From a virus: a DNA stretch of 64,000 bases. The stretch covers positions 1 to 64,000 of the IMG/VR virus record IMGVR_UViG_3300027628_000003. One strand, given 5' to 3'. This document shows positions 21,154 through 48,634 of the stretch, one piece after another (position 1 is the stretch's first letter; every line of letters begins with the position of its first letter). The notes beneath the pieces were generated by a model that did no database searches, was not told where the DNA came from, and saw nothing but the letters and a program-made list of their open reading frames with translations. The position numbers were made by a program, and so were the translations under genes.

Positions 21154-21360
21154 AGGGGGTGGGGGTTGTAGAAAAGGGGTAGGGGGTGTATTTGGGGGGG
21201 TGTCGGGGGAGGTAGGGGGTGATGATGGGTTAGAAAAGTGGGGAGTGGTGCGTTGTGGTAGTGGGTTGGGGCGTGTGTGAGACTCCAAAGGAAACATGAT
21301 TCCTTACGTAGGCGAAAAAAGAAAACTTTAGGGGGTGGGGGTTAGAGATAGGGGGTGGTG
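21154..21360 (+). repeat. G-tract repeat region (TAGGGGGTG x4-5; many G4-G7 runs)
   Basis: aaGGGGGTGGGGGttg (21154), aaGGGGTAGGGGGTGta (21176), ttGGGGGGGtgtcGGGGGaggTAGGGGGTGat (21194-21222), then tTAGGGGGTGGGGGtta (21330) and aTAGGGGGTGgtg (21350). Confidence 0.8.
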
Positions 21361-27785: not shown

Positions 27786-27901
27786 TAAGACTGCCCCAAG
27801 GCTTCAGGGGACGCTAGGCGTCCTAGTGCTGCCTCTGCTGTATCAGGTAGTGCATAAGCCCTGTCCTGCGCCACGCAAATGCTCGATATTAATAGCCCGT
27901 G

Positions 27902-28079
27902 TATATCGTATTATTCGTATATTAAGAGTATGCTGCTCCAAGGATATCGTGTTATTGTGATATAGTCCGTATATATCGTATTATTCTTATATTAAGAGTA
28001 TGTGTTTTAGTATATTGTGTTTTGTGTATATATTAAGTGTGTAATATGCGTATATCGTATTATTAGTATGTTAAAAGGG
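27902..28079. repeat. three ~30-bp direct repeats
   Basis: TATATCGTATTATTCGTATATTAAGAGTATG at 27902, TATATCGTATTATTCTTATATTAAGAGTATG at 27972, and TATATCGTATTATTAGTATGTTAAAAG at 28051. Confidence 0.75.
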
Positions 28080-28129
28080 ATTTATATAGTGAAAAGAGAA
28101 TATTAGAACATTATTATATATTTATATTA

Positions 28130-28220
28130 GCGATAAGGGTTGTGGTGGGGGAACTGGTGGTGAGGCGATACCTCGCTCTTCTTTATATGAAGCAAGTTTC
28201 TACCTAACCCCCATAGAAAC
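28130..28220 (+). repeat. dispersed early-region repeat, copy 2 (GGTGG box + palindrome)
   Basis: gcgataaGGGTTGTGGTGGGGGaaCTGGTGGTGagg ... GTTTCTA-cctaaccccca-TAGAAAC (28196-28220), about 45 bp upstream of P1. Confidence 0.7.
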
Positions 28221-28265
28221 GCCTAGGGCTAGGCGTATAGCCCCACTCTACCTACCGAAACGTCC

Positions 28266-28294
28266 TTGACTTTCAGCCCCACTCGTGGTAAAAT
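28266..28294 (+). promoter_or_regulatory. strong sigma-A-type early promoter P1
   Basis: aaaCGTCC-TTGACT, 17 nt ending TGg, then TAAAAT. Followed by the leader aagTTCAAGaggaggaGGGcac. Confidence 0.7.
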
Positions 28295-28378
28295 AAGTTC
28301 AAGAGGAGGAGGGCACTACACCAGAGAGGGTAGCACCCACCACCAACAAAATCATAAGATAAAAGGAGATTGATTAAT

Positions 28379-28780
28379 ATGGCTAAAACTAAAAAGGTAG
28401 ACGCAGTGAAATTCGTAGAGGAAAAAGGCTTCCCAGAGGTAGGACACTTTGAGGAGAAAAAAGACCTACAAAAATTCTACAAACAACTGGATGACGTAGC
28501 ACTACTAGAATGGATTGAAGTAGAAGGATTAGAGTTCAAACCTTGTGAGGATAGCGAGGCTATCAACAGAATGAGAATGTGTATGGCTATCCTATACAAA
28601 CACTTCCCTAAGGCACCAACAGCTAAGAAGAAAGCTAAGTACGCAGACTACACTATGGAACAGCTTATGCAGATGTGCTTAGACAACGATGTAGCAGTAG
28701 AGTACACTGAGAGCGAACAAATCATGCGTATGAGAACTATCATGGCTCTACGTGCAGCAGGTCATATCGAGAAAGCTTAA
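28379..28780 (+). CDS. early-cassette protein, family A (paralogue of 29942..30349 and of the C-terminus of 34988..35791)
   Basis: ATG at 28379. Carries the shared ~125-aa core PEVGHFE.KK.LQKFYKQL...W.EVEGLE(F/Y)KP...INRMR.CMAILY.HFPK...KKKAKYADYTME.LM..CLDND.AVEYT.SEQIMRMRTIMALRAAG. Lies downstream of a consensus promoter. Confidence 0.75.
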   Translation: MAKTKKVDAVKFVEEKGFPEVGHFEEKKDLQKFYKQLDDVALLEWIEVEGLEFKPCEDSEAINRMRMCMAILYKHFPKAPTAKKKAKYADYTMEQLMQMCLDNDVAVEYTESEQIMRMRTIMALRAAGHIEKA

Positions 28781-28792
28781 TGGTTGCTAGGC

Positions 28793-28810
28793 TACCCCCT
28801 ACGGGGGGTA
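28793..28810 (+). other. intercistronic stem-loop with UACG tetraloop
   Basis: TACCCCC-TACG-GGGGGTA, flanked by the conserved TTGCTAG ... CCATGGAGCT..AGCTACCTAGTTAAAAGGAGTGGT. Confidence 0.7.
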
Positions 28811-28854
28811 TCCCATGGAGCTTGTAAGCTACCTAGTTAAAAGGAGTGGTTAGT

Positions 28855-29172
28855 ATGAAGACTAAAACGTATATCCCTGAGTGGATTGTACTAGAGGAAA
28901 ACTCACCTAGTGAGATGCACTATATCCGTATGGTGGGCAGTGACGCTCGTGAGTACGATGGCACTGAGAGTATCTGGGTAATTATCTTTGACCATATCCG
29001 TGAGGATGAGTTCTGTGTATCTATCGTGGCTGTGAATGACTCGTTGGTGGGTAGCATAGTACCGTTTATGAGTACTGGAGTAGTGAGTGAGCTGAGTGCT
29101 AGAAACAACATGGAGTACCTGATGCAGTACGCTCGTAAAGGTATCGTGACTGTGGGAGGTGGTCTATTATGA
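28855..29172 (+). CDS. early-cassette protein, second cistron
   Basis: ATG at 28855 after the conserved CTAGTTAAAAGGAGTGGTTAGT. 105 aa. Confidence 0.65.
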   Translation: MKTKTYIPEWIVLEENSPSEMHYIRMVGSDAREYDGTESIWVIIFDHIREDEFCVSIVAVNDSLVGSIVPFMSTGVVSELSARNNMEYLMQYARKGIVTVGGGLL

Positions 29173-29321
29173 CTGAGTACTTCCCAGGCACTACTACCTG
29201 CGATATCTGTGATAAACCTTTCACTCAGATGTACCCTAATGACCCTGCCTATGATGCTCCTATGGACATCTGTGACGAGTGTAATGGAGGTGAGTGTATT
29301 GAAGACCGCAAGAACGATTAA
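29169..29321 (+). CDS. small C4 zinc-ribbon protein (50 aa)
   Basis: ATGA overlap with the upstream stop. Reads MTEYFPGTTTCDICDKPFTQMYPNDPAYDAPMDICDECNGGECIEDRKND (CxxC...CxxC). Below the track cutoff. Confidence 0.5.
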   Translation: MTEYFPGTTTCDICDKPFTQMYPNDPAYDAPMDICDECNGGECIEDRKND

Positions 29322-29435
29322 GCGTGTACTAGTGGTAACAGGAGCGTGTACGCTCCTTTACCTAGCTTGTAACCTAGTGTATACTGCATGCACATGGACG
29401 TATCCAGGAGTAGAAAAGCAATTAGAAGCATATCA

Positions 29436-29467
29436 AGACACCTACAGTAAGTAGGTGTCTATTTTTG
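29436..29467 (+). terminator. intrinsic terminator closing early cassette 1
   Basis: AGACACCTAC-agtaa-GTAGGTGTCT followed by ATTTTTG. Confidence 0.8.
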
Positions 29468-29691
29468 TGCGTTTGTGGGTGTAGGGCATCTTTTAGCCCG
29501 TTTTGGGGCTTTTGTGAGCGCAAAGGCTTTCGGGTTCAAAACGGTTTGAACGAGAAATTTGGGTAGGAAAATAGTAGCTCAAAAATCGTGTTTGGTGTGT
29601 TGTTCTGTGTCAGTTTTCTGCTTCAAAATCAGTCAGAACCATTTGTATATGAAAGAGAGAGAAGAGAGAAATTTGAGTATAAAAGATATAT

Positions 29692-29796
29692 GAGCGAAGG
29701 GTTGTTGTTGGGTGACTTTGGTGGTTGAAAGAGTATCTGATAAGCGAACTTCAATTGCTTTATTTGAAAGGAATTTCTAGGTAACCCCCATAGAAA
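29692..29796 (+). repeat. dispersed early-region repeat, copy 3 (GGTGG box + palindrome)
   Basis: gagcgaaGGGTTGTTGTTGGGTgacTTTGGTGGTTGaaagagtatctgataagcgaacttcaattgctttat ... TTTCTA-ggtaaccccca-TAGAAA (29774-29796), about 48 bp upstream of P2. Confidence 0.7.
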
Positions 29797-29843
29797 GCCC
29801 AACAGGGCTAGCGCTACCGTCCATCCTATATGAGTAAACGTCC

Positions 29844-29872
29844 TTGAGTATTCCACCCACCCGTGATATAAT
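29844..29872 (+). promoter_or_regulatory. strong sigma-A-type early promoter P2
   Basis: aaaCGTCC-TTGAGT, 17 nt ending TGa, then TATAAT. Leader ttaTTCAAGgggaGCGGGtcac. Confidence 0.7.
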
Positions 29873-29941
29873 TTATTCAAGGGGAGCGGGTCACACCGAC
29901 TCCTACTAGACCAGCCCACCGAGGCTTAGGAGGAATATGAT

Positions 29942-30349
29942 ATGAGTAAAAAAGAGAATATCAACGGTAAAGTAGACGCTATGGAATGGATTACTGCGAA
30001 TAATGGGTATCCTGAGGTAGGTATATTCGAGGATAAGAAATGGTTACAGAAGTTCTATAAGCAGTTACCTATCGAGGTTCTGGAGGACTGGTGTAGTGTA
30101 GAAGGATTGGAGTATAAGCCTAACGATAACGAACAGATCCATAGAATGAGAGTATGTATGGCTATCCTATACTTCCACTTCCCTAAAGAGCCTAGTACTA
30201 AGAAGAAAGCTAAATATGCAGACTATACTATGGAGGCACTTATGACACTCTGCCTAGATAATGATATAGCTGTAGAATATACAGATAGTGAGCAGATTAT
30301 GAGAATGCGTACTATTATGGCACTACGTGCAGCTGGTAAGATTCAGTAA
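29942..30349 (+). CDS. early-cassette protein, family A (paralogue of 28379..28780)
   Basis: 135 aa with RBS aggagg. About 60-70% identical by eye to 28379..28780. Lies downstream of a consensus promoter. Confidence 0.75.
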   Translation: MSKKENINGKVDAMEWITANNGYPEVGIFEDKKWLQKFYKQLPIEVLEDWCSVEGLEYKPNDNEQIHRMRVCMAILYFHFPKEPSTKKKAKYADYTMEALMTLCLDNDIAVEYTDSEQIMRMRTIMALRAAGKIQ

Positions 30350-30357
30350 GTTGCTAG

Positions 30358-30379
30358 TACTCCCTCTACGGAGGGGGTA
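30358..30379 (+). other. intercistronic stem-loop with UACG tetraloop
   Basis: TACTCCCTC-TACG-GAGGGGGTA with the same flanks. Confidence 0.7.
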
Positions 30380-30421
30380 TCATGGAACCTATTGGTTACC
30401 TAGACTAAAGGAGTGGTAAGT

Positions 30422-30697
30422 ATGTATGATGTAGTTAGTGAGTTAATACCTATGAGTGAGTCTGATATGGAGTGGGTACGTGAGCACCTGCGTGAGGTAG
30501 AGCCTAGTATACACAACGCTAGGTATTGGCGAGTAGTATACTGGTCTAATGAGAACGGTAGTGCTACTGAGATTCAGCCTATGGGTGTGAATATAGACGA
30601 GGACGTAGAGGGCTTCGGTGTAGGTGATTTAAATGGTGTAGCCTACTGGAGTAAGTACCTGCGTGAGCGTGGCTTCCCTAGATATATGTTTGAGTGA
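30422..30697 (+). CDS. early-cassette protein, second cistron
   Basis: ATG at 30422 after the conserved CTAGACTAAAGGAGTGGTAAGT. 91 aa. A strong terminator follows. Confidence 0.65.
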   Translation: MYDVVSELIPMSESDMEWVREHLREVEPSIHNARYWRVVYWSNENGSATEIQPMGVNIDEDVEGFGVGDLNGVAYWSKYLRERGFPRYMFE

Positions 30698-30703
30698 GTG
30701 TGT

Positions 30704-30735
30704 AACCCTAGTACTGTGTGTACTAGGGTTTTTCT
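30704..30735 (+). terminator. intrinsic terminator closing early cassette 2
   Basis: AACCCTAGTA-N7-TACTAGGGTT followed by TTTCT. Confidence 0.8.
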
Positions 30736-30858
30736 ATGTCCTTTTCTGCTCCTATGTGAGTTGTATAGCAACTCTGTAAGTCGATTTCTCTCAAAGGTGA
30801 AAGGGTTCAAAGATTGAAGCAGGAGAAATTCGAGTAAGTGAGTGGTAGAATGTTAAAT

Positions 30859-30960
30859 AGGCGAAAGGTTGGTGGGGGGATTGAATGGTGGGAAGAGTTT
30901 CTGATGAGCGAACCGAATTGCTTTATAGGAAGTGAGTTTGTAGGTACTCCTCATAGAAAC
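30859..30960 (+). repeat. dispersed early-region repeat, copy 4 (orphan, no promoter follows)
   Basis: aggcgaaaGGTTGGTGGGGGGattgaATGGTGGGaagagtttctgatgagcgaaccgaattgctttat ... GTTTGTA-ggtactcctca-TAGAAAC (30936-30960). Confidence 0.65.
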
Positions 30961-30967
30961 GAGCATA

Positions 30968-30999
30968 AGAAAACCCTATATACGTTTGTGTATATAGGG
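30968..30999 (-). terminator. intrinsic terminator closing the leftward early genes (convergent with 30704-30735)
   Basis: CCCTATATAC-N6-GTATATAGGG followed by TTTTCTT on the minus strand. Confidence 0.7.
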
Positions 31000-31011
31000 T
31001 GTATATGGGTA

Positions 31012-31230
31012 CTAGAAGCCTGCTGGTTCTACATCTAGGTCTAGTACATCTCGTATCATATTGAATACATCTGCCCCTAGTAAGTTCTCATGTAGCCTAC
31101 TAGCTATAAGTTGTATATCATCCTCGTTAACCTCAGGTACGTCTATACCCTGCTCCTTACTATTCTGTATCTCTTCCCTTACCTTCTGTCTTAGCCATGC
31201 CACAGCCATTTCATCTGTAATAGTATTCAT
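31012..31230 (-). CDS. hypothetical early protein (probable paralogue of 31230..31460)
   Basis: 72 aa. Shares the W-L-R-x-(K/E)-V-R and D-(D/E)-D-I pattern with its neighbour. A terminator follows. Confidence 0.55.
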   Translation of the reverse strand: MNTITDEMAVAWLRQKVREEIQNSKEQGIDVPEVNEDDIQLIASRLHENLLGADVFNMIRDVLDLDVEPAGF

Positions 31231-31460
31231 TATAGTAAGTCCTCCTCTATCTCGAATCTACTAGCTATATCAATAGTAATCTGTTCATTAACCCCAGTTA
31301 GGAAGTTTTGTACTAGGCATTCAATATCCTCATCATCCCAATGTATAGGTGGGTTACCCTTCTTTATCCGGTATGCACTAATAGCACTAAGGTTACTACG
31401 AACCTCTCCTCGTAGCCATTCTAGTACCTCTGGGCTAGGGGCATTATATAAGTCTATCAT
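31230..31460 (-). CDS. hypothetical early protein
   Basis: 76 aa with RBS aaaaggagagagttaat. Confidence 0.55.
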   Translation of the reverse strand: MIDLYNAPSPEVLEWLRGEVRSNLSAISAYRIKKGNPPIHWDDEDIECLVQNFLTGVNEQITIDIASRFEIEEDLL

Positions 31461-31502
31461 ATTAACTCTCTCCTTTTATCTGTGAGTATAGGTATTCCAT
31501 GA

Positions 31503-31524
31503 GTAGCCCTGCGTACAAGGCTAC
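31503..31524 (-). other. intercistronic stem-loop with UACG tetraloop
   Basis: Minus strand reads GTAGCCTTG-TACG-CAGGGCTAC, preceded by TTGCTAG. Confidence 0.6.
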
Positions 31525-31534
31525 CTAGCAATCC

Positions 31535-31831
31535 CTATTTGTGAGTAGTGCACCCTATGAATGCCTTAGTAGGCAGGTAGTAGGTGAACTGTGGACTATC
31601 AGTATAGTTATAGCGAATCCATACACTATCTCTTTCGTTAGTGAATGCTATATCAGTGAATAGTTGTTGGAACTGCTCCGGTACCTCTCTGTATCTAGAG
31701 ATACCCTGTACAAATACCTCACCTTCTTCTAGTACATGTAACCCATAAGCAAAGGTAGGGTGCATATTCCACAGACTACCTGGGCTTACCTCTATAGTGA
31801 TGTGTGCATCTGCGTTACCTAATTCGTGCAT
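31535..31831 (-). CDS. hypothetical early protein
   Basis: Start placed at the ATG at 31831 (aagggagaggttaat-ATG). The track start at 31867 sits in the loop of an 8-bp intercistronic hairpin. Confidence 0.55.
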   Translation of the reverse strand: MHELGNADAHITIEVSPGSLWNMHPTFAYGLHVLEEGEVFVQGISRYREVPEQFQQLFTDIAFTNERDSVWIRYNYTDSPQFTYYLPTKAFIGCTTHK

Positions 31832-31857
31832 ATTAACCTCTCCCTTATATGTAAGTA

Positions 31858-31876
31858 CTAGGGGCATAGCCCCTAG
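31858..31876 (-). other. intercistronic stem-loop
   Basis: CTAGGGGC-ATA-GCCCCTAG, 8 bp. Confidence 0.55.
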
Positions 31877-31877
31877 C

Positions 31878-32270
31878 TTAGTACTCGCTGAAGTAGTATA
31901 CGTGTACCTCTACTCCATTAGCTAGAGTAACGTCATACTCCCCTGTATCTATACAGATACAATCTTGTAGCCCACTACAGCACTCTATACCTTCGTCTAC
32001 GTGCTTCCTATTTACACAACCTGACATAGAGTTACCAGCTATGTTACCTTCTGCGCTATGGTCTAGACCCTTAGCATAATGGTGTAGGTAGTGCACTGTA
32101 GCTAGCATATCATCCTCAGGTAGGTTATTAATATTGAATACGTAGTACTCTCTGTCATACTGTATACGTATAGGCTCCTCCTTAATACCGTGGTGGTCTT
32201 GGTTGGTACTGTATACTGCCTCATCTATTAAGCCCATAGGCATTGTGTCTGAACCGTACATAATTATCAT
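31878..32270 (-). CDS. hypothetical early protein (Cys/His-rich)
   Basis: 130 aa with RBS aggaggagatagta. First cistron behind the promoter at 32320-32348. Confidence 0.6.
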   Translation of the reverse strand: MIIMYGSDTMPMGLIDEAVYSTNQDHHGIKEEPIRIQYDREYYVFNINNLPEDDMLATVHYLHHYAKGLDHSAEGNIAGNSMSGCVNRKHVDEGIECCSGLQDCICIDTGEYDVTLANGVEVHVYYFSEY

Positions 32271-32319
32271 TACTATCTCCTCCTAATCTCTAGTAGAAGC
32301 ACCCCTGCTCCTTGAAGAA

Positions 32320-32348
32320 ATTATACCACGGAGCAGGGAAAATCCCAA
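32320..32348 (-). promoter_or_regulatory. strong sigma-A-type early promoter P3
   Basis: Minus strand reads gaaCGTCC-TTGGGA, 17 nt ending TGg, then TATAAT. Leader ttcTTCAAGgaGCaGGGgtgc. Confidence 0.65.
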
Positions 32349-32368
32349 GGACGTTCCCTACTGCTAGG

Positions 32369-32767
32369 CTATCTAGGATTTCTCACATAAGGGTTATCTA
32401 TAAACAATAGGTAGATATCCTTATCATTCTGCTTACGTATGATAGCTCTATTATCCTCTCCCATACGCTCTACCTTATTAACCTCCCACACACTATACTC
32501 TTCATATAGGCGCTTACCAGAGATATCCTTACCCTGCCATACATCCTCTTGTAGCATAGCTCCTGTAGGTATCACTACGTTTATAAGGTCTTCTACCCAG
32601 TCGTCTGGATACTCTTCAGGTAGGGCTAATAGGTTAAAGCGTTCCCCATCCTCTACAAACTTAGTTAGACCTGCACCTATAGCACGCTTTACAAACTCTG
32701 CTACCTCTGTAGCTGTAGCACGCTCACTATATAGGTAGGCTACTGGTGTCATTTTCTTACTTAACAT
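32369..32767 (-). CDS. hypothetical early protein
   Basis: ATG at 32767 after the conserved CTAGATAAAAGGAGTGGTATAT. Confidence 0.6.
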   Translation of the reverse strand: MLSKKMTPVAYLYSERATATEVAEFVKRAIGAGLTKFVEDGERFNLLALPEEYPDDWVEDLINVVIPTGAMLQEDVWQGKDISGKRLYEEYSVWEVNKVERMGEDNRAIIRKQNDKDIYLLFIDNPYVRNPR

Positions 32768-32814
32768 ATATACCACTCCTTTTATCTAGGTAGCTATGGT
32801 TAGCTCCATAATAC

Positions 32815-32830
32815 CTGCTCCTTAGAGCAG
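32815..32830 (-). other. intercistronic stem-loop (UAAG loop)
   Basis: Minus strand reads CTGCTC-TAAG-GAGCAG with the same conserved flanks. Confidence 0.6.
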
Positions 32831-32841
32831 ATACTAGCAAC

Positions 32842-33147
32842 CTACCATTGGCTAATATGATGTGCAAACTCATGTACTGGGAAGTAGTCTAGTGCACCCT
32901 CCTCATAGCTATCATATGCATATACTACCCACTGCCATGTATCCACTACGCTAGGGTCTTCCTCGAACTCACGATACACATCTAGGTCTACACAGCTAGG
33001 TACTTCTTCTGTAGGGATAATAGCTGACACCTTAACTAGACCGTTCTCTATTCCTAGATACTCCTCACTAGGGTGTATGTAATAGCTACGTCCTACCTCA
33101 ATAGTTCTCTCTACCTGTACTGTAATAGCATTTATCTTAATACCCAT
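32842..33147 (-). CDS. hypothetical early protein (paralogue of 33223..33549)
   Basis: ATG at 33147 after the conserved CTAGATAAAAGGAGTGGTACAA. Shares IHPSE.Y.GIE.G...V with its neighbour. Confidence 0.6.
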   Translation of the reverse strand: MGIKINAITVQVERTIEVGRSYYIHPSEEYLGIENGLVKVSAIIPTEEVPSCVDLDVYREFEEDPSVVDTWQWVVYAYDSYEEGALDYFPVHEFAHHISQW

Positions 33148-33196
33148 TTGTACCACTCCTTTTATCTAGGTAGCTCATACTAAGCTCCATAGTACC

Positions 33197-33210
33197 TGCC
33201 CCGTAGGGCA
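33197..33210 (-). other. intercistronic stem-loop with UACG tetraloop
   Basis: Minus strand reads TGCCC-TACG-GGGCA with the same conserved flanks. Confidence 0.6.
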
Positions 33211-33222
33211 AGCACTAGCATA

Positions 33223-33549
33223 TTAGTATGTTGTAGTGTGGTCTAGGAACTCCTCTAGCTCTAGCACCTGTACCTCACCGTTATCATATTTGTATACTAC
33301 GAATGTATAGTTCTCTACTGGTTCAATATCTAGTAGCAGTTCCTGTAGCATACCATAGTGGTTATACGCTAACTCTGTGGACTCTGTAGTTAGCTCTCCT
33401 ACCTTACCTGCTTCTAGCACTCGGATAGCACCAGACTCGATACCTTGATACGCTTCACTAGGGTGGATATTCATACGGTGCCCTACAGATACAGTACCTG
33501 TAAGCGTATACGTTACTCCAGTTTTATTCGGTTGTGTAGTATTAATCAT
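33223..33549 (-). CDS. hypothetical early protein (paralogue of 32842..33147)
   Basis: 108 aa with RBS aggaggaatatatt. First cistron behind the promoter at 33609-33637. Confidence 0.6.
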   Translation of the reverse strand: MINTTQPNKTGVTYTLTGTVSVGHRMNIHPSEAYQGIESGAIRVLEAGKVGELTTESTELAYNHYGMLQELLLDIEPVENYTFVVYKYDNGEVQVLELEEFLDHTTTY

Positions 33550-33608
33550 AATATATTCCTCCTATGTGGTTGTAGTCGGTTGCTGGTGTTCCCCGCCCCC
33601 GTAACAAA

Positions 33609-33637
33609 ATTATCGCACGGAGGGGAGAAAATCTCAA
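33609..33637 (-). promoter_or_regulatory. strong sigma-A-type early promoter P4
   Basis: Minus strand reads caaCGTCC-TTGAGA, 17 nt ending TGc, then GATAAT. Leader ...acggggGCGGGgaac. Confidence 0.65.
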
Positions 33638-33680
33638 GGACGTTGCCTACTGGTAGCCTAGTTACGGGCTGACCCTATAG

Positions 33681-33730
33681 CGTGGGAGTGTTTTATTTGA
33701 AGCGATTTTCTACCTACCCTCCATAGAGAC
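33681..33730 (+). repeat. partial copy of the early-region repeat (palindrome part) inside the minus-strand gene block
   Basis: ttttatttgaagcgaTTTTCTAcctaccctccaTAGAGAC, in the same (plus) orientation as copies 1-4. Confidence 0.55.
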
Positions 33731-33738
33731 GTCTAGGC

Positions 33739-33762
33739 ATAAAAATAGCCCCTATTAGGGGC
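33739..33762 (-). terminator. probable terminator
   Basis: GCCCC-taata-GGGGC followed by TATTTTTAT. Confidence 0.5.
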
Positions 33763-33766
33763 GGTA

Positions 33767-34108
33767 TTAGTCTAGGTTATAGGTACCAGGTCTACAGAAG
33801 TAGTACCATGCTTCATAGTAATAGGATAGGCTATCATGGGTACGAGTCATTAGACCTAAGCCTTTATAGTGAGTTAGGTAGAACTCTACCCATGCCGTAT
33901 GGTAGTGCTCTAGGCACTGTTGTAGGAGTTTAGCACTATCCTTAGTTAGCATACCCTGTACATTAAACTCATCTACAATATTGTTAAGTTCCTCTAGGGG
34001 TATGGGGCAGCTACCCTCTTCACGCTTAACCTCTGCTATACGCTCCCATACAAAGTCTAATACCCAACGCATTACTTCTTCTCTAGTATACATCTCTTTT
34101 TTAGCCAT
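33767..34108 (-). CDS. hypothetical early protein
   Basis: 113 aa with RBS aagggagcggatatag. Confidence 0.6.
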   Translation of the reverse strand: MAKKEMYTREEVMRWVLDFVWERIAEVKREEGSCPIPLEELNNIVDEFNVQGMLTKDSAKLLQQCLEHYHTAWVEFYLTHYKGLGLMTRTHDSLSYYYEAWYYFCRPGTYNLD

Positions 34109-34128
34109 CTATATCCGCTCCCTTAGTA

Positions 34129-34332
34129 TTAATATTCACTGCTATGCTTATAGCCATTACCACGCTGTAGAACAGTGTAGGCACTCTTATCATAAGGGTT
34201 ACTCCCTGTATACCTAGCTAATGCGTAATCAGTGAGTGCCATACGTCTCATAAACCGTCTCATAGCTGACATAGACTCATAGGTCTTATGTCCCTCTATT
34301 TCATCTTGTGAGTACTCTATATTAAGAGGCAT
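34129..34332 (-). CDS. hypothetical early protein
   Basis: 67 aa, 1-nt overlap with the upstream gene. Confidence 0.5.
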   Translation of the reverse strand: MPLNIEYSQDEIEGHKTYESMSAMRRFMRRMALTDYALARYTGSNPYDKSAYTVLQRGNGYKHSSEY

Positions 34333-34643
34333 TAGTTACTCACCACCAGTACATGGTAGAATGTAACGTCTATATAACGTTCTCTAGATACTGACACTGT
34401 GATACCGTGTGTGATAATATCCTGCTCATGAGTGAGTGGTAGGTCATCTAAGGCAGGTATCTCATTCATATGATCAGCATGTGCCCACATAGTAGTAGCA
34501 TGCTCATCTGATATTGAAGCAGGTGCTAGGTACATATCACCCTCTATATTATGCCACTCTGCTTCCTGTATAGTTAGCCTTAGGGCTATTTCTTCCATTA
34601 CCTCAGCAGGTATAAGTGTGTTATTAACAAGTACCTTAGTCAT
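34332..34643 (-). CDS. hypothetical early protein
   Basis: Start moved to the ATG at 34643 (ggggtgcgtaat-ATG, just after the upstream TAA). Confidence 0.55.
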   Translation of the reverse strand: MTKVLVNNTLIPAEVMEEIALRLTIQEAEWHNIEGDMYLAPASISDEHATTMWAHADHMNEIPALDDLPLTHEQDIITHGITVSVSRERYIDVTFYHVLVVSN

Positions 34644-34644
34644 A

Positions 34645-34911
34645 TTACGCACCCCACTTTATGATATGTTTGATAGTACCTGTAGTCTGATTATCTATCT
34701 CAGCTGCATAAACTCCAGTACCAAAGTCTAAGCCTTGGTCTACCTGCTCCTTAACAGTGCTCCAGCCTGTAGCAGTCTTGGTAACCTTATTCCACACCCC
34801 ATCGAAAGTATTAGGGCACTTAGGGTCATCACTATCTACTAGTCTACCCTCTTTATCTACAATCACACTATCACCATCAGTGAATAGTATACAGTAATCT
34901 TGGCTATACAT
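34645..34911 (-). CDS. hypothetical early protein
   Basis: ATG at 34911 after the conserved CTAGATAAAAGGAGTGGTTAAT. Confidence 0.6.
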   Translation of the reverse strand: MYSQDYCILFTDGDSVIVDKEGRLVDSDDPKCPNTFDGVWNKVTKTATGWSTVKEQVDQGLDFGTGVYAAEIDNQTTGTIKHIIKWGA

Positions 34912-34956
34912 ATTAACCACTCCTTTTATCTAGGTAACATACAATGTTCCAGTGCT

Positions 34957-34976
34957 ATAGCCCCCGTAGGGGCTAT
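34957..34976 (-). other. intercistronic stem-loop with UACG tetraloop
   Basis: Minus strand reads ATAGCCCC-TACG-GGGGCTAT with the same conserved flanks. Confidence 0.7.
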
Positions 34977-34987
34977 GCTAGCAACAC

Positions 34988-35791
34988 CTATGCTAATAGT
35001 CCTGCTTCACGTAAAGCCATGATAGTGTACATGCGTAGGATATTTTCGTTATCCCCTTTAGGCTCTCTTACCTCTACATCATTCTCAATAGCCATTGCTA
35101 GTAAGTCCTCTGTAGATAGGTGACCATATTTAGCTTTCTTCTTACCACTAGTCTTCTTAGGGAAGTGGTGGTTACTGATAGCCATGCATGCTCTCATACG
35201 ATTGATACCAGGGTTATCATTAGGCTTCCACTCTAAGCCCTCTATCTCAGCCCACTCACTAATCTGCTCCATAGATAGGCGTTTGTAGAACTTCTTAATA
35301 TCGTCGATAGATTCGAAGTGTCCTACTTCAGGGTACTCAATCTCCTGACCTGCTAGGTCTTCCTTAACCTTAGGAGCTTTAGCCTTAGGCTCTGGCTGTT
35401 TTAGTTTCTTAGCCATAGCTCTCCAGTCAGCTACCTCTTCTTTAGGCTCTTCTTCTACAGGAGCAGGTACTTCCTCTTCAGTATGTACCTCTTCCTCTAC
35501 AGGCTCTTCAATAGGCTCCTCTTCTAGAGCTAATTCCTCCTGCTCTTCCTCTACTACTTCTAGCTTACCGCTCTCTGGAGCGTCTCCTACCATTACTACT
35601 TCTATCTTACCTTCTTCTACTGCTGCTTCTACTAGAGTGTCGTTACCTGCTTCTTCTACTACATCCTCGATAACCTCTACGCCTTCGTACTCACCAGCTA
35701 AGATACCTTTCTTAGTAACTTTTACTCCTAAGATTGCTCCTACTTCCTTAACTGTTGCTACTGTTTCCTCACCGTTTACTAGATATGCCAT
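34988..35791 (-). CDS. early-cassette protein, family A with extra N-terminal domain and poly-acidic linker
   Basis: Start moved to the ATG at 35791 (aaaggagacgataatt-ATG). The C-terminal ~120 aa match 28379..28780 and 29942..30349. The middle is EEEQEELALEEEPIEEPVEEEVHTEEEVPAPVEEEPKEE. Confidence 0.7.
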   Translation of the reverse strand: MAYLVNGEETVATVKEVGAILGVKVTKKGILAGEYEGVEVIEDVVEEAGNDTLVEAAVEEGKIEVVMVGDAPESGKLEVVEEEQEELALEEEPIEEPVEEEVHTEEEVPAPVEEEPKEEVADWRAMAKKLKQPEPKAKAPKVKEDLAGQEIEYPEVGHFESIDDIKKFYKRLSMEQISEWAEIEGLEWKPNDNPGINRMRACMAISNHHFPKKTSGKKKAKYGHLSTEDLLAMAIENDVEVREPKGDNENILRMYTIMALREAGLLA

Positions 35792-35867
35792 AATTATCGT
35801 CTCCTTTATTCTCGAATATTTGTTGAGTGGGACTCCTCTGTGAGGAGTGCCCCGCTCGCTTGAACCA

Positions 35868-35896
35868 ATTATTGCATGGTGAGGTGAGGAAGTCAA
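35868..35896 (-). promoter_or_regulatory. strong sigma-A-type early promoter P5
   Basis: Minus strand reads aaaCGTCC-TTGACT, 17 nt ending TGc, then AATAAT. Leader tggTTCAAGcgaGCGGGGcac. Confidence 0.65.
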
Positions 35897-36035
35897 GGAC
35901 GTTTTGTTACTCTAGCCTACTCTACTTGCTGTCCCTATAAGCTTTTGATGTGCTACCAATGTAACCTACCTAGGACACAAAGAAAAAATAAAAAAGGAAG
36001 AGATGCGGTTTCGCTATCTCTTCCCTAGTTCTTTT

Positions 36036-36076
36036 CCCTTATTGGAAACGATTTTCTACCTAACCCTCATAGAAAC
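36036..36076 (+). repeat. partial copy of the early-region repeat (palindrome part)
   Basis: cttattggaaacgaTTTTCTAcctaaccctcaTAGAAAC, in plus orientation. It abuts the stop of 36078..36332. Confidence 0.55.
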
Positions 36077-36077
36077 C

Positions 36078-36332
36078 CTACTCGTGGGGGTTATGAGGTG
36101 GGGCTACCATGTCTCTAAGGTCAATATAATGTTCTACCTCTGTAGCAGTAGTACCTTCCCCTGTACCAGTCTGTACACACAGAGGACATACAGGATTCTC
36201 TGCCTTATAGTGGGATAGGAACATACCATGTAGGTCACATGGGTGGAGTTTCATACCCTTTGGTAGATACCTTACTACACCTTCCATACCAATCTGGTTA
36301 ATAGACTTCTGTATATCATTAACTGCACTCAT
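36078..36332 (-). CDS. hypothetical protein (Cys-rich)
   Basis: 84 aa with RBS aaggagggataacg. Contains a HPCDLHG...CPLC pattern. Confidence 0.55.
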   Translation of the reverse strand: MSAVNDIQKSINQIGMEGVVRYLPKGMKLHPCDLHGMFLSHYKAENPVCPLCVQTGTGEGTTATEVEHYIDLRDMVAPPHNPHE

Positions 36333-46600: not shown

Positions 46601-48634
46601 TTACTCCCCCACTGCACCTCTCATAATCTCTTGCTGTTCTTTAAGGATAGGGTCTAACACTCGGCTCTGGTACTCCTCACTTACTTTCTTAGCATTAAAG
46701 GCACCAATACCCAGCTCTCTAGCAAAACGACTTACCTTACAACGTCTACCATTGAAGCCTTGTAGACAAGATACATATACTTCACTTTCGGCTCTTGTAA
46801 TGCCAACATATAATAATCTACGCTCTTCCTCAATAGCTAAAGGCTTACCATCCTCTGCTGCTTCTACTGCTCTAAAGTGAGGTAACACTCCTTCAGACAC
46901 ACCCACACAGAATGCTACAGGGAACTCAAGACCCTTACTCTTATGGATAGTCATTAACTGAACCCCATCAATACTATGTTTAGCTTGGGAAGTCATTAAG
47001 TCAATGTAGTCTAAGAAATCCCCAAGGTCATCATAGCGGTCTAGAACATATTGAAGAGTTGCAATGTTCTCCATACGGCTACTCTCTTCTTCCTCTTCTT
47101 CACCTAAGATATAGTCCTTATATCCAACGTTATCTAGAAGATGATTAACTAAGTCTGTAGGGGTTGCACCCTCTTCTAACATCTCTTGTAGGTCTTTAAT
47201 GATGCCTGCAAACTCTAGAGAGCCTTTAACCTGATAGTTTTGTAGCTTCAGCTTACCAGACAGAATAGCTTCCCAGTGTGAGCCATCAAAAGCACTTACC
47301 TTGTTGTAGAACTCCTTACCTAAGTATCGGCTAGGAACGTTGTATACACGCTTGAATGCCTGGTTATTATCTGGGTTGACTGCTAGTTGCAGGTAAGATA
47401 CAAGGTCTTTAACCTCTTTACGTTCATAGAAAGAGATACCTCCATGAATAACGTATGGTAGACCTGCCATGATTAACTCATCTTCAATAGCACGAGATTG
47501 AGCATTGGTACGGTAAAGTATTGCAATATCCTTGTGGTTTCTGCCCTTCTTCTCTATCTGAATCTTGATATCCTCTACTACTTGTTTAGCTTCCTCTGTC
47601 TCATCCTTGAATACAGATAGAGCTACGCAATCGCTATCATCCTTCTTATGTGCTTTAAGCGTCTTCTTGATACGCTTAGTGTTATGTTTGATAAGGTTGT
47701 TAGCAATCTCTAGAATTGCTGGGTTACTACGATAGTTATCCTCTAATGCAATAGACTGTACTCCACTGAATGAAGAACTAAACTCAATAAATTGTTCTGG
47801 TCTTGCACCACGGAAACCGTACATAGACTGGTCATCGTCACCTACGATAAATAAGTTATTCTCTGGATAAGCAAGCATAGACATTAGTTCATATTGTAAT
47901 GAGTTGCTATCTTGTGCCTCATCCACTAGTATGTATTTGTAGATAGCTTGGTATTTCTGAAGGATATCTGGATGCTCTTTAAATAGCTTCCATGTAAGGT
48001 AAAGCATGTCGTCCCCATCAATCTTATTCTGACTAGTCTTAGCAAGCTCATAGCGTCTGAAGAACTCAATATAGCAGTCCATTCTAGTACCCTTACCTGC
48101 ATTCTCCTCTTCAAAGTCTCGGTAGTCTTTACCTTCATTCTTAGTTAAACCAACTACCTTTAGTAGACCTGGAACTGGCATGTCTCTTAGCTCTTCCTTA
48201 ATACTGAACTCAACAGTTCTATCCATCATGATAGCTTTAATGATACTCTCAGCAAAGTACTTTTGAGAGTTACCCATTAGTACTCCATCCTTCTTCTTAA
48301 ACGCTTGGAATAGGGGATTGCCTAAAGCCTCATATTCCTTCTTTAGAATACGGTAACCAATAGAATGTGTAGTACCAATTGTTAACTGCATAAGCTTCAT
48401 CTGTGGGATTAACTTACTAAGACGCTCTGTCATCTCCTCACTAGCCTTCTTAGTAAATGTTGTTAACATGATATTCTTAGGCTTGATTTTAAGGTCAGTA
48501 ATCATGTGTGCTGTACGGTGTGTTAGGACACGAGTCTTACCTGAACCTGCTACTGCATTTATTTGAATACGACCATCTATTGCTAATACTGCCTGCTCTT
48601 GGCTTGGATTTAACCCATCAATAAATTTACTCAC
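46601..48634 (-). CDS. UvrD/PcrA/Rep-type superfamily-1 DNA helicase
   Basis: 677 aa with a GTG start after aaaaggagagggtatta. Motif I AVAGSGKTRV, motif II LVDEAQDS, plus FIVGDDDQSMYGFRGA, TIHKSKGLEF and LLYVGITRA. Confidence 0.85.
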   Translation of the reverse strand: MSKFIDGLNPSQEQAVLAIDGRIQINAVAGSGKTRVLTHRTAHMITDLKIKPKNIMLTTFTKKASEEMTERLSKLIPQMKLMQLTIGTTHSIGYRILKKEYEALGNPLFQAFKKKDGVLMGNSQKYFAESIIKAIMMDRTVEFSIKEELRDMPVPGLLKVVGLTKNEGKDYRDFEEENAGKGTRMDCYIEFFRRYELAKTSQNKIDGDDMLYLTWKLFKEHPDILQKYQAIYKYILVDEAQDSNSLQYELMSMLAYPENNLFIVGDDDQSMYGFRGARPEQFIEFSSSFSGVQSIALEDNYRSNPAILEIANNLIKHNTKRIKKTLKAHKKDDSDCVALSVFKDETEEAKQVVEDIKIQIEKKGRNHKDIAILYRTNAQSRAIEDELIMAGLPYVIHGGISFYERKEVKDLVSYLQLAVNPDNNQAFKRVYNVPSRYLGKEFYNKVSAFDGSHWEAILSGKLKLQNYQVKGSLEFAGIIKDLQEMLEEGATPTDLVNHLLDNVGYKDYILGEEEEEESSRMENIATLQYVLDRYDDLGDFLDYIDLMTSQAKHSIDGVQLMTIHKSKGLEFPVAFCVGVSEGVLPHFRAVEAAEDGKPLAIEEERRLLYVGITRAESEVYVSCLQGFNGRRCKVSRFARELGIGAFNAKKVSEEYQSRVLDPILKEQQEIMRGAVGE

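Follow-up and report, generated by a model that had tools for sequence, protein, structure and literature searches.

Probable early promoters with a conserved extension of the -35 region and a 5'-terminal leader hairpin in a CP-51-like phage of the Bacillus cereus group

Six promoter sites, P1 to P6, with one common template were found in a stretch of 64,000 nt of viral DNA (positions 1-64,000 of the IMG/VR record IMGVR_UViG_3300027628_000003; in the following called the window), of which both strands were scanned (128 kb). By its sequence the source phage is a Siminovitchvirus (Herelleviridae, Spounavirinae), a CP-51-like myovirus of the Bacillus cereus group. Probably, P1-P6 are the early-promoter class of this phage and represent the genus version of the SPO1-type host-takeover cassette. 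An initial annotation of the window had described them as near-identical strong promoters of an early regulon with a conserved transcribed leader. Each site was read directly, and all six were confirmed at the positions and on the strands given there. For the list below, the transcription start was taken as the A located 7 nt past the -10 hexamer (CA of TTCAAG), which is consistent with the start mapped for a Kayvirus (PMC7698491).

P1, plus strand: AACGTCC 28259-65; -35 TTGACT 28266-71; -10 TAAAAT 28289-94; predicted start A28301 (CA in TTCAAG)
P2, plus strand: AACGTCC 29837-43; -35 TTGAGT 29844-49; -10 TATAAT 29867-72; predicted start A29879
P3, minus strand: AACGTCC 32355-49; -35 TTGGGA 32348-43; -10 TATAAT 32325-20; predicted start 32313
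P4, minus strand: AACGTCC 33644-38; -35 TTGAGA 33637-32; -10 GATAAT 33614-09; predicted start 33602
P5, minus strand: AACGTCC 35903-897; -35 TTGACT 35896-91; -10 AATAAT 35873-68; predicted start 35861
P6, minus strand: AACGTCC 48729-23; -35 TTGATT 48722-17; -10 GAAAAT 48699-94; predicted start 48687

In every site AACGTCC abuts TTGnnn, followed by a spacer of exactly 17 nt, as had been annotated, which ends in (C/A)(G/A)TGn (the '-16' motif of Gram-positive promoters), and by a -10 hexamer nAnAAT. The window contains exactly six copies of the 9-mer ACGTCCTTG, one at each of these sites. For AACGTCC itself nine occurrences were counted, compared to 2.4 expected, and none of 100 shuffles reached nine. 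The position weight matrix (PWM) that had been proposed was built over 45 nt and gave 44-59 bits for the six sites, whereas the next best match in the 128 kb of strand reached 10.3 bits. Leave-one-out scores ranged from 17.6 to 47 bits, with P6 as the lowest. With a generic sigma-70 scan of 27-37 kb, P1-P5 were the five top-listed matches, each with 10/12 and an extended -10. Six sites each were also found in CP-51, Shanette and a 139-kb IMG/VR genome, and when DNA of CP-51 and Shanette, retrieved by homology, was searched with a generic scan, the five top matches with a 17-nt spacer all carried AACGTCC.

The mean pairwise identity among the six sites was 1.00 for AACGTCC, 0.79 for the -10, 0.73 for the -35, 0.47 for the spacer, 0.44 for the leader from +4 to +18 and 0.30 for the 30 nt upstream. 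With these values, the term near-identical is an overstatement. The TTCAAG described for the leader was seen in four sites only, and its place is taken by GTTACG in P4 and by TCTTGT in P6.

One other strong sigma-A-like promoter was observed at 7064-7036 on the minus strand (TTGACA, 17 nt with TG, CAAAAT), in the intergenic space before a 307-aa gene (6989-6066) with no assigned function. It is without the GTCC extension and belongs to a second class of host-type promoter.

The block of 28-36 kb, in which P1-P5 are located, is 88-90% identical to the Bacillus phages CP-51, Shanette and JL. The part of Shanette and JL to which it aligns is marked as terminal repeat in their records; the 64-kb window contains a single copy of the block and no visible repeat boundary. 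Its two sides, one with gp44 and one with gp51, converge with the same layout as in the SPO1 gene map. The first gene of the P5 operon (35791-34988) is an orthologue of SPO1 gp44, with 57% identity in the C-terminal domain and an N-terminal domain matching the structure of Gp44(1-55) (PDB 6L6V). The first genes of the P1 and P2 operons are mutual paralogues and homologues of SPO1 gp51. On these grounds the block is taken to correspond to the host-takeover (terminal-redundancy) module of SPO1. The parallel to SPO1 drawn in the initial annotation proved to be real homology, with the gp44 orthologue, the gp51 homologues, the terminal-repeat mapping and SPO1 sites on the same template. The SPO1 host-takeover genes are early genes, whose promoters and ribosome-binding sites are typical of highly expressed genes (PMC6873191). 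The early promoters of SPO1 are read by the host sigma-A holoenzyme, and gp44 and gp51 are listed among the early genes (PMC13401047). The switch from the early to the middle phase of transcription in SPO1 requires gp44, gp50 and gp51, according to PMC8208478, which cites Sampath and Stewart (2004). The assignment of the six units in the window as early is deduced from sequence relationships of this kind. Use of host sigma-A, as annotated, agrees with the hexamers, the spacing and the TG motif, while the SPO1 late consensus does not fit. Taken as a whole, the earlier interpretation is supported.

The extension AACGTCC was compared with that of more distant relatives. A metagenome search with the gp51-like protein family yielded 31 loci (34-100% protein identity), and 36 distinct strong promoter-like sites were picked in these relatives without using the extension. 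Here G was found at -39 in 33/36 sites, T at -38 in 29/36, C or A at -37 in 25/36 and 8/36, respectively, and C at -36 in 34/36. Positions -42 to -40 were variable (AAC, TTC, ATC, AAA, ACT and others). Since the core is kept in these sites while -42 to -40 vary, AACGTCC falls into two parts: GT(C/A)C, at -39 to -36 and joined directly to the -35, is the old core, and the AAC in front of it (-42 to -40) is fixed only in the CP-51 group. Within this group the heptamer is invariant, including A at -42 in 58/58 instances, although this position lay outside the search pattern. The motif is not confined to the source phage, and its core GT(C/A)C is subfamily-wide.

An UP-like contact had been considered for the extension. 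A classical UP element, A/T-rich between about -40 and -60, is not what it is, because it contains G/C and the 30 nt upstream are neither A/T-rich nor conserved. A class of host promoters was rejected, too: in 185,579 species genomes (one genome per species) there were 56 scattered matches to the composite motif, estimated to be about chance for 17 specified bases, and none of these was in the representative genomes of the B. cereus group. CCTTGA at the -35 and TCAAGG at the start were also considered as half-sites of one operator and rejected, with both present in only 4/6 sites. TTCAA at the start was found in phages with other extensions as well and is probably start-site context. A literature search for the motif string matched only unrelated primer sequences.

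Folding from the predicted starts gave a stem-loop in each of the six leaders, with pairing that begins at nt 2-8 of the predicted RNA:

P1 leader hairpin, plus strand: about 28305-28344
P2 leader hairpin, plus strand: 29882-29904
P3 leader hairpin, minus strand: 32312-32295
P4 leader hairpin, minus strand: 33601-33577
P5 leader hairpin, minus strand: 35857-35825
P6 leader hairpin, minus strand: 48684-48663, with the arms AGAGGGAG/CTCCCTCT

The folds have energies of -8.5 to -19 kcal/mol and z-scores of -1.1 to -4.5 against dinucleotide shuffles. In the orthologous leaders of nine related genomes the hairpin is kept despite changes in both arms. The P6 arms AGAGGGAG/CTCCCTCT are replaced by GGGAGG/CCTCCC and GGAGCGG/CCGaCTCC of P2 by GGGCGG/CCGCCC, and in P3 a G-U pair is changed to G-C. 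For 25 non-redundant leaders of diverged metagenomic relatives the mean z-score was -1.9 (t-test p 4e-7, Fisher p 2e-12), and pairing starts at nt 1-8 in 22 of them, given the predicted start. Because the folds in the window, the arm changes in the orthologues and the 25 relatives agree, the conserved transcribed leader of the initial annotation is the 5' arm of a 5'-terminal stem-loop, the structure of which is more conserved than its sequence. A leader RNA structure had been suggested as one possible additional layer, and the hairpins in the window and in the relatives speak for it. The 5' exonuclease RNase J1 of Bacillus subtilis is blocked by stem-loops at the 5' end and by bound ribosomes (PMC3997798, PMC7509114), and such roadblocks stabilise mRNA against this enzyme (PMC3997798). 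By analogy, the leader hairpin may protect the early mRNA from decay by RNase J1.

Between the 5' hairpin and the Shine-Dalgarno sequence, a C/A-rich motif (CTAGACCAGAG or ACACCAG) was observed in the leaders of P1, P2, P3, P4 and P6. Its counterparts are (C)TAGACCAAGA or GTACCAAGA in SPO1 (L075) and CAACCACA in the Exiguobacterium phage vB_EalM-132.

A second RNA element, R1, is an extended hairpin of about 60 nt between early genes. Its internal-loop strands are TTGCTAG on the 5' side and CATGGAGC on the 3' side, the terminal loop is UACG or UAAG, and downstream of every copy come CTACCTAGATAAAAGGAGTGG and the start codon of the next gene. A covariance model built from window copies identified six copies in the window:

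R1, plus strand: 28773-28832, followed by the conserved ribosome-binding block CTACCTAGTTAAAAGGAGTGG
R1, plus strand: 30339-30399
R1, minus strand: 33232-33173
R1, minus strand: 32853-32792
R1, minus strand: 34997-34934
R1, minus strand, weaker copy (31.7 bits): 31539-31486

More copies were found in CP-51 and Shanette, and the SPO1 terminal redundancy contains six (E-values 2e-11 to 4e-5), located in L075 at 12282-12223, 11862-11801, 12783-12724, 12487-12430, 7103-7165 and 5798-5851. Both stems covary. In five window copies 12/23 pairs have changes on both sides, and in 20 distinct copies this number is 18/23; in the latter set 89% of the cells are paired, compared to 36-50% when the partners were slid. 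A search of 27-37 kb against Rfam gave no match at E up to 1. The targets of RNase III in phage SP82 are described as stems with internal loops and a single cut on the downstream side (PMC1935012), and a polypurine 5' stabiliser of SP82 is attributed to Hue et al. (1995) in PMC3997798. R1 agrees with this description as an extended stem with internal loop in the early-operon RNA of SPO1-group phages. It is probably an SP82-type RNase III site with a polypurine 5' stabiliser, likened to the SP82 sites by their description.

From these elements the following explanation is proposed. The host sigma-A RNA polymerase would fire P1-P6 right after DNA entry. The -35 region would be extended upstream to -42, where GT(C/A)C most likely tightens the grip of the holoenzyme through sigma region 4 or the alpha C-terminal domain. 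Such a contact with the conserved host holoenzyme is favoured, with roughly an even chance of being correct, because phages with different hosts have retained the core and because immediate-early promoters must function before any phage protein is present. Transcription would begin at the A of CA in TTCAAG, and the G-rich first bases would pair with a C-rich stretch 10-25 nt downstream to form a stem-loop 1-8 nt from the 5' end of the RNA. Together with a strong Shine-Dalgarno sequence, this stem-loop probably shields the early mRNAs from 5'-end-dependent decay by RNase J1. R1 followed by AAAAGGAG would probably be processed by RNase III and stabilise the 5' end of the downstream cistron, in the manner described for SP82. 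Furthermore, the cassettes may act as homology patches where related phages swap genes.

Several observations weigh against this explanation. Timing, start sites and sigma factor of P1-P6 are inferred from sequence and homology. P6 is an outlier and the weakest family member. P1-P6 need not be all of the host-read promoters, because the promoter at 7064-7036 has no extension. To our knowledge, no base-specific contact of a host RNA polymerase at -39 to -36 is known, and with its G/C the extension is not a classical UP element. An extension that simply suits the host enzyme best might also be expected in some host promoters, but the representative genomes of the B. cereus group lack the composite motif. 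In SPO1, GT is found in a looser register behind an A-tract. Concerning the leaders, three of the six in the window do not individually reach significance in the comparison with shuffles (p 0.07-0.15). When own and foreign hairpin arms were compared by a crude test with a fixed split, the difference was weakly significant in the window (p 0.03) and not significant in SPO1 or the Exiguobacterium phage; support for the hairpin was based on the shuffle z-scores in place of this weak test.

As the main alternative, the extension (AACGTCC or its core GTCC) could be an operator for a phage protein that selectively shuts off or boosts early promoters, which we regard as a real but clearly lesser possibility. 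Conservation is higher in the heptamer than in the core hexamers (1.00 versus 0.73 and 0.79); the heptamer contains G/C and is asymmetric like a monomer site, and the composite motif is absent from host-type genomes. A candidate reader is the gp44 orthologue, which is encoded directly behind P5 and has a DNA-binding N-terminus of the 6L6V type; in a gp44-like candidate the N-terminal domain binds DNA and the acidic middle region binds RNA polymerase. The requirement for gp44, gp50 and gp51 in the early-to-middle transition of SPO1 (PMC8208478) would fit. A similarly limited probability is given to the extended form of this idea, a dedicated early-promoter mark read by the N-terminal domain of the gp44 family or by another early or middle product, which would selectively silence or boost this promoter class only, with AAC co-evolved with its reader. 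However, Gp44(1-55) of SPO1 bound two promoter DNAs without preference (PMC8208478), and the early shut-off in SPO1 is now ascribed to a block of the sigma-A holoenzyme by Gp33 without promoter specificity (PMC13401047). In addition, phages with different hosts have GT(C/A)C in common, while their candidate reader proteins diverge, and the need for immediate-early function ahead of any phage protein applies here, too. Promoters for a phage-encoded sigma factor of the middle or late class have next to no probability: the unusual extension is the sole point in favour, and hexamers, 17-bp spacing and TG motif match sigma-A. The middle consensus of SPO1 is AGGAGA/TTTNTTT, and P1-P6 do not match it. 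TTGnnn/nAnAAT also mismatches the late consensus CGTTAGA-N17-19-GATATT, as quoted in PMC3601020, and the homologues in SPO1, gp44 and gp51, appear in its list of early genes (PMC13401047).

For the leader hairpin, another function is conceivable, i.e. a processing site, a pause or antitermination signal, or a site for a phage RNA-binding protein. Two of the SPO1 R1-type (RNase III-like) hairpins lie directly in promoter leaders (L075 5798-5851 and 12430-12487), an ACCA(G/A)A or CTAGACCAG motif recurs past the hairpin in both genera, and Gp49, a protein from the host-takeover module of SPO1, is reported as RNA-binding (PMC10531801). Nevertheless, we consider this unlikely, as the leader hairpins of the window are short (6-12 bp) and have no R1 match, their only common property is the position at the 5' end, as 5'-end protection needs, and the reading as a pausing or antitermination signal is putative only. 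It is very unlikely that the shared sequence is functionless in itself, i.e. derived from recent duplicates or gene conversion and mainly a recombination patch like the early-promoter/stem-loop (PeSL) cassettes of T4 type. Such an origin would agree with the homology breakpoints against CP-51 and Shanette, which fall at leaders, at start codons and at intercistronic cassettes, and with the paralogous genes behind P1, P2 and P5. Conversion tracts, on the other hand, would not give the sharp edges of conservation (heptamer 1.00 against 0.30 upstream and 0.47 in the spacer), and the same four core positions are preserved in far more diverged relatives. It is highly improbable that the site works by pairing of the C-rich spacer with the G-rich leader on the other side of the -10, whether in the DNA (hairpin or cruciform) or as a hairpin in read-through RNA (for instance a structure-dependent promoter or an attenuator). 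In P3 the spacer CCCTGCTCC is the perfect complement of the leader GGAGCAGGG and forms an inverted repeat of 9-10 bp across the -10 (32302-32340, minus strand), kept in all relatives; P4 and P2 of CP-51 also pair well. Because no terminator separates the upstream P4 operon from P3, read-through RNA would fold at the P3 repeat. As a general feature the pairing was rejected: across 38 distinct sites, pairing with the own leader (-13.6 kcal/mol) was no better than with foreign leaders (-12.5 kcal/mol, standard deviation 3.9), P1, P5 and P6 pair poorly, and the G-run of the leader has a better-supported partner downstream. In the window it remains an oddity of P3 and P4.

Promoters of this kind are already known as the SPO1-type early promoters of the host-takeover module, of which P1-P6 are a genus-specific variant. 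SPO1 has its early promoters at what is probably the same genome position, with convergent operon layout and homologous gp44 and gp51 genes. Common to both are TTGAC(A/T), 17 bp, (T/C)RTGn, an AATAAT-like -10, a start at A after TTCA or GTCA, a G-rich leader with a 5' hairpin in most cases, a strong Shine-Dalgarno sequence and the intercistronic R1 hairpin. A plain sigma-A scan of the SPO1 terminal redundancy yielded 12 strong sites with 17-bp spacer and extended -10, compared to six such promoters in the window. They carry an AAAAAGTnn extension, a T/C-rich spacer start, (C/G)GTGn before AATAAT and a start at A after TCA, and in 7 or 8 of the 12 the G-rich run pairs with a C-rich run just downstream. 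The extension of SPO1 thus consists of an A-tract and GT in looser register with A/T-rich DNA upstream, whereas AACGTCC is invariant in the source phage and the DNA upstream is not A/T-rich. The Exiguobacterium phage vB_EalM-132 is alike in its gp44 and gp51 homologues, GGT(A/G)C-TTGACA and TTCAA(G/C) at the start.

For the Staphylococcus Kayvirus vB_SauM-515A1 (Herelleviridae), host-dependent early transcription including the host-takeover module was described, with early promoters mapped by RNA-seq that have a strong consensus of sigma-70 type (TTGACW, 17 bp, TRTGN and TATANT) and a start about 6 bp past the -10 (PMC7698491). In contrast to the source phage, no conserved extension 5' of the -35 was reported, and 58 promoters are distributed genome-wide versus six here (PMC7698491). 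The Bacillus phage Bc431v3, also a large myovirus of the B. cereus group, has a lineage-specific conserved extension directly 5' of the -35 (TTGTTGAC), but this extension is TTG and not GTCC (PMC3601020). The 5' stabilisers of B. subtilis (aprE leader and others; PMC3997798, PMC7509114) likewise combine a stem-loop near the 5' end with a strong ribosome-binding site and a short leader. In the source phage, by comparison, the start site is predicted and the stabilising role is putative. The Bs-RNase III sites of SP82 resemble R1, compared by description, in the extended stem of about 20 bp, the internal loop, the location in early transcripts of the SPO1 group and the following polypurine AAAAGGAG. 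Processing and stabiliser in SP82 were reportedly studied by Panganiban and Whiteley (1983), Mitra and Bechhofer (1994) and Hue et al. (1995). Work of this kind is cited in PMC4838370, PMC1935012 and PMC3997798. The PeSL cassettes of T4 type (PMC2839356, PMC4122927) are also short, repeated and located at the boundaries of indels or replacements between close relatives, where they flank small variable genes. They differ by their unrelated sequence and their occurrence in T4-like myoviruses of Gram-negative hosts. Furthermore, the stem-loop is a terminator in front of the promoter there, while it lies downstream in the leader or between genes in the source phage, and the two are analogues only.

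We could not find a description of the GT(C/A)C-extended -35 with invariant AAC, of a near-universal 5'-terminal hairpin or of the covarying intercistronic motif. In general, the window is an ordinary but clean example of an SPO1-like launch of infection and leaves the general picture of phage early transcription unchanged. It offers a rule by which early promoters of CP-51-like phages can be found and which, by means of the GT(C/A)C core, extends to wider Spounavirinae relatives. This is of value for annotation as almost all early genes in those phages are without known function. Regarding the mechanism, a base-specific -35 extension that is better conserved than the hexamers and a 5'-terminal hairpin near-universal on early mRNAs are testable points, and so is the strongly covarying RNA motif, which is common to Okubovirus and Siminovitchvirus and has no Rfam match in the region searched. 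The cassettes are candidates for compact, strong expression parts for Bacillus.

The genes behind the promoters are arranged as follows:

P1 operon, plus strand, 28379..29460: genes 28379-28780 (gp51-like), 28855-29172 and 29209-29454; terminator-like site 29436-29460
P2 operon, plus strand, 29942..30730: genes 29942-30349 (gp51-like) and 30422-30697; terminator-like site 30704-30730
P3 operon, minus strand, 30973..32270: genes 32270-31878, 31867-31535, 31460-31230 and 31230-31012; terminator-like site 31000-30973
P4 operon, minus strand, 32369..33549: genes 33549-33223, 33156-32842 and 32776-32369; no terminator-like site before P3
P5 operon, minus strand, 33748..35791: genes 35791-34988 (gp44 orthologue), 34920-34645, 34652-34332, 34332-34129 and 34108-33767; terminator-like site 33762-33748
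Gene after P6, minus strand, 46601..48634: UvrD/REP-type helicase of 677 aa, outside the host-takeover module

Terminator-like sites end the units of P1, P2, P3 and P5, and none was found between the P4 unit and P3. Apart from the gp44 and gp51 relatives, the genes of the block are small and have no assigned function. No TF1/HU-like gene was found in the window with an HBsu sequence as query.

The homology to CP-51 and Shanette breaks at the edges of the cassettes:

28861 and 34896/34909: breakpoints directly after R1 and ribosome-binding blocks
32264 and 33547/33573: breakpoints at the start codons that follow the leaders of P3 and P4
30699/30730 and 31005: breakpoints at terminators

The location of these breakpoints suggests that the cassettes also serve as homology patches for gene swaps between related phages. 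The first gene of the P4 operon (33223-33549, minus strand; 108 aa) could be assigned to no PHROG family, and its DNA did not match CP-51 or Shanette, while its promoter and leader do match these phages. It looks like a cassette-flanked gene replacement.

Some further repeats and RNA genes were observed in the window. A 46-nt motif, D2, with the core TTTCTACCTAACCCCCATAGAAAC (TTTCTA-N11-TAGAAA inverted repeat) has five copies, compared to 0.01 expected by chance:

D2, plus strand: 28182-28227
D2, plus strand: 29759-29804
D2, plus strand: 30922-30967
D2, plus strand: 33692-33737
D2, plus strand: 36038-36083

The copies are on the plus strand whatever the direction of the neighbouring operon and occur only in the 28-36 kb block; the motif is absent from the SPO1 terminal redundancy. 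With no consistent reading frame and no covariation, a gene end or an RNA was rejected for D2. Possibly it is a protein site at the DNA level or tied to replication, packaging or injection polarity. Upstream of P1, a non-coding stretch of about 900 nt contains three direct repeats (ATAGCCCGTGTATATCGTATTATTCGTATATTAAGAGTATG; about 41 nt each) at 27892-28081, which are possibly near a terminal-repeat boundary or an origin. G-rich direct repeats (AGGGGGTGGGGGTTGTAGAAAAGGGGT) are present in three copies at 21154-21356. On the minus strand, tRNA-Trp (4869-4942), tRNA-Met (5715-5788) and an odd tRNA-like gene (5323-5397) were found, together with a match to the Rfam skipping-rope RNA RF02924 at 4674-4761 (65 bits).

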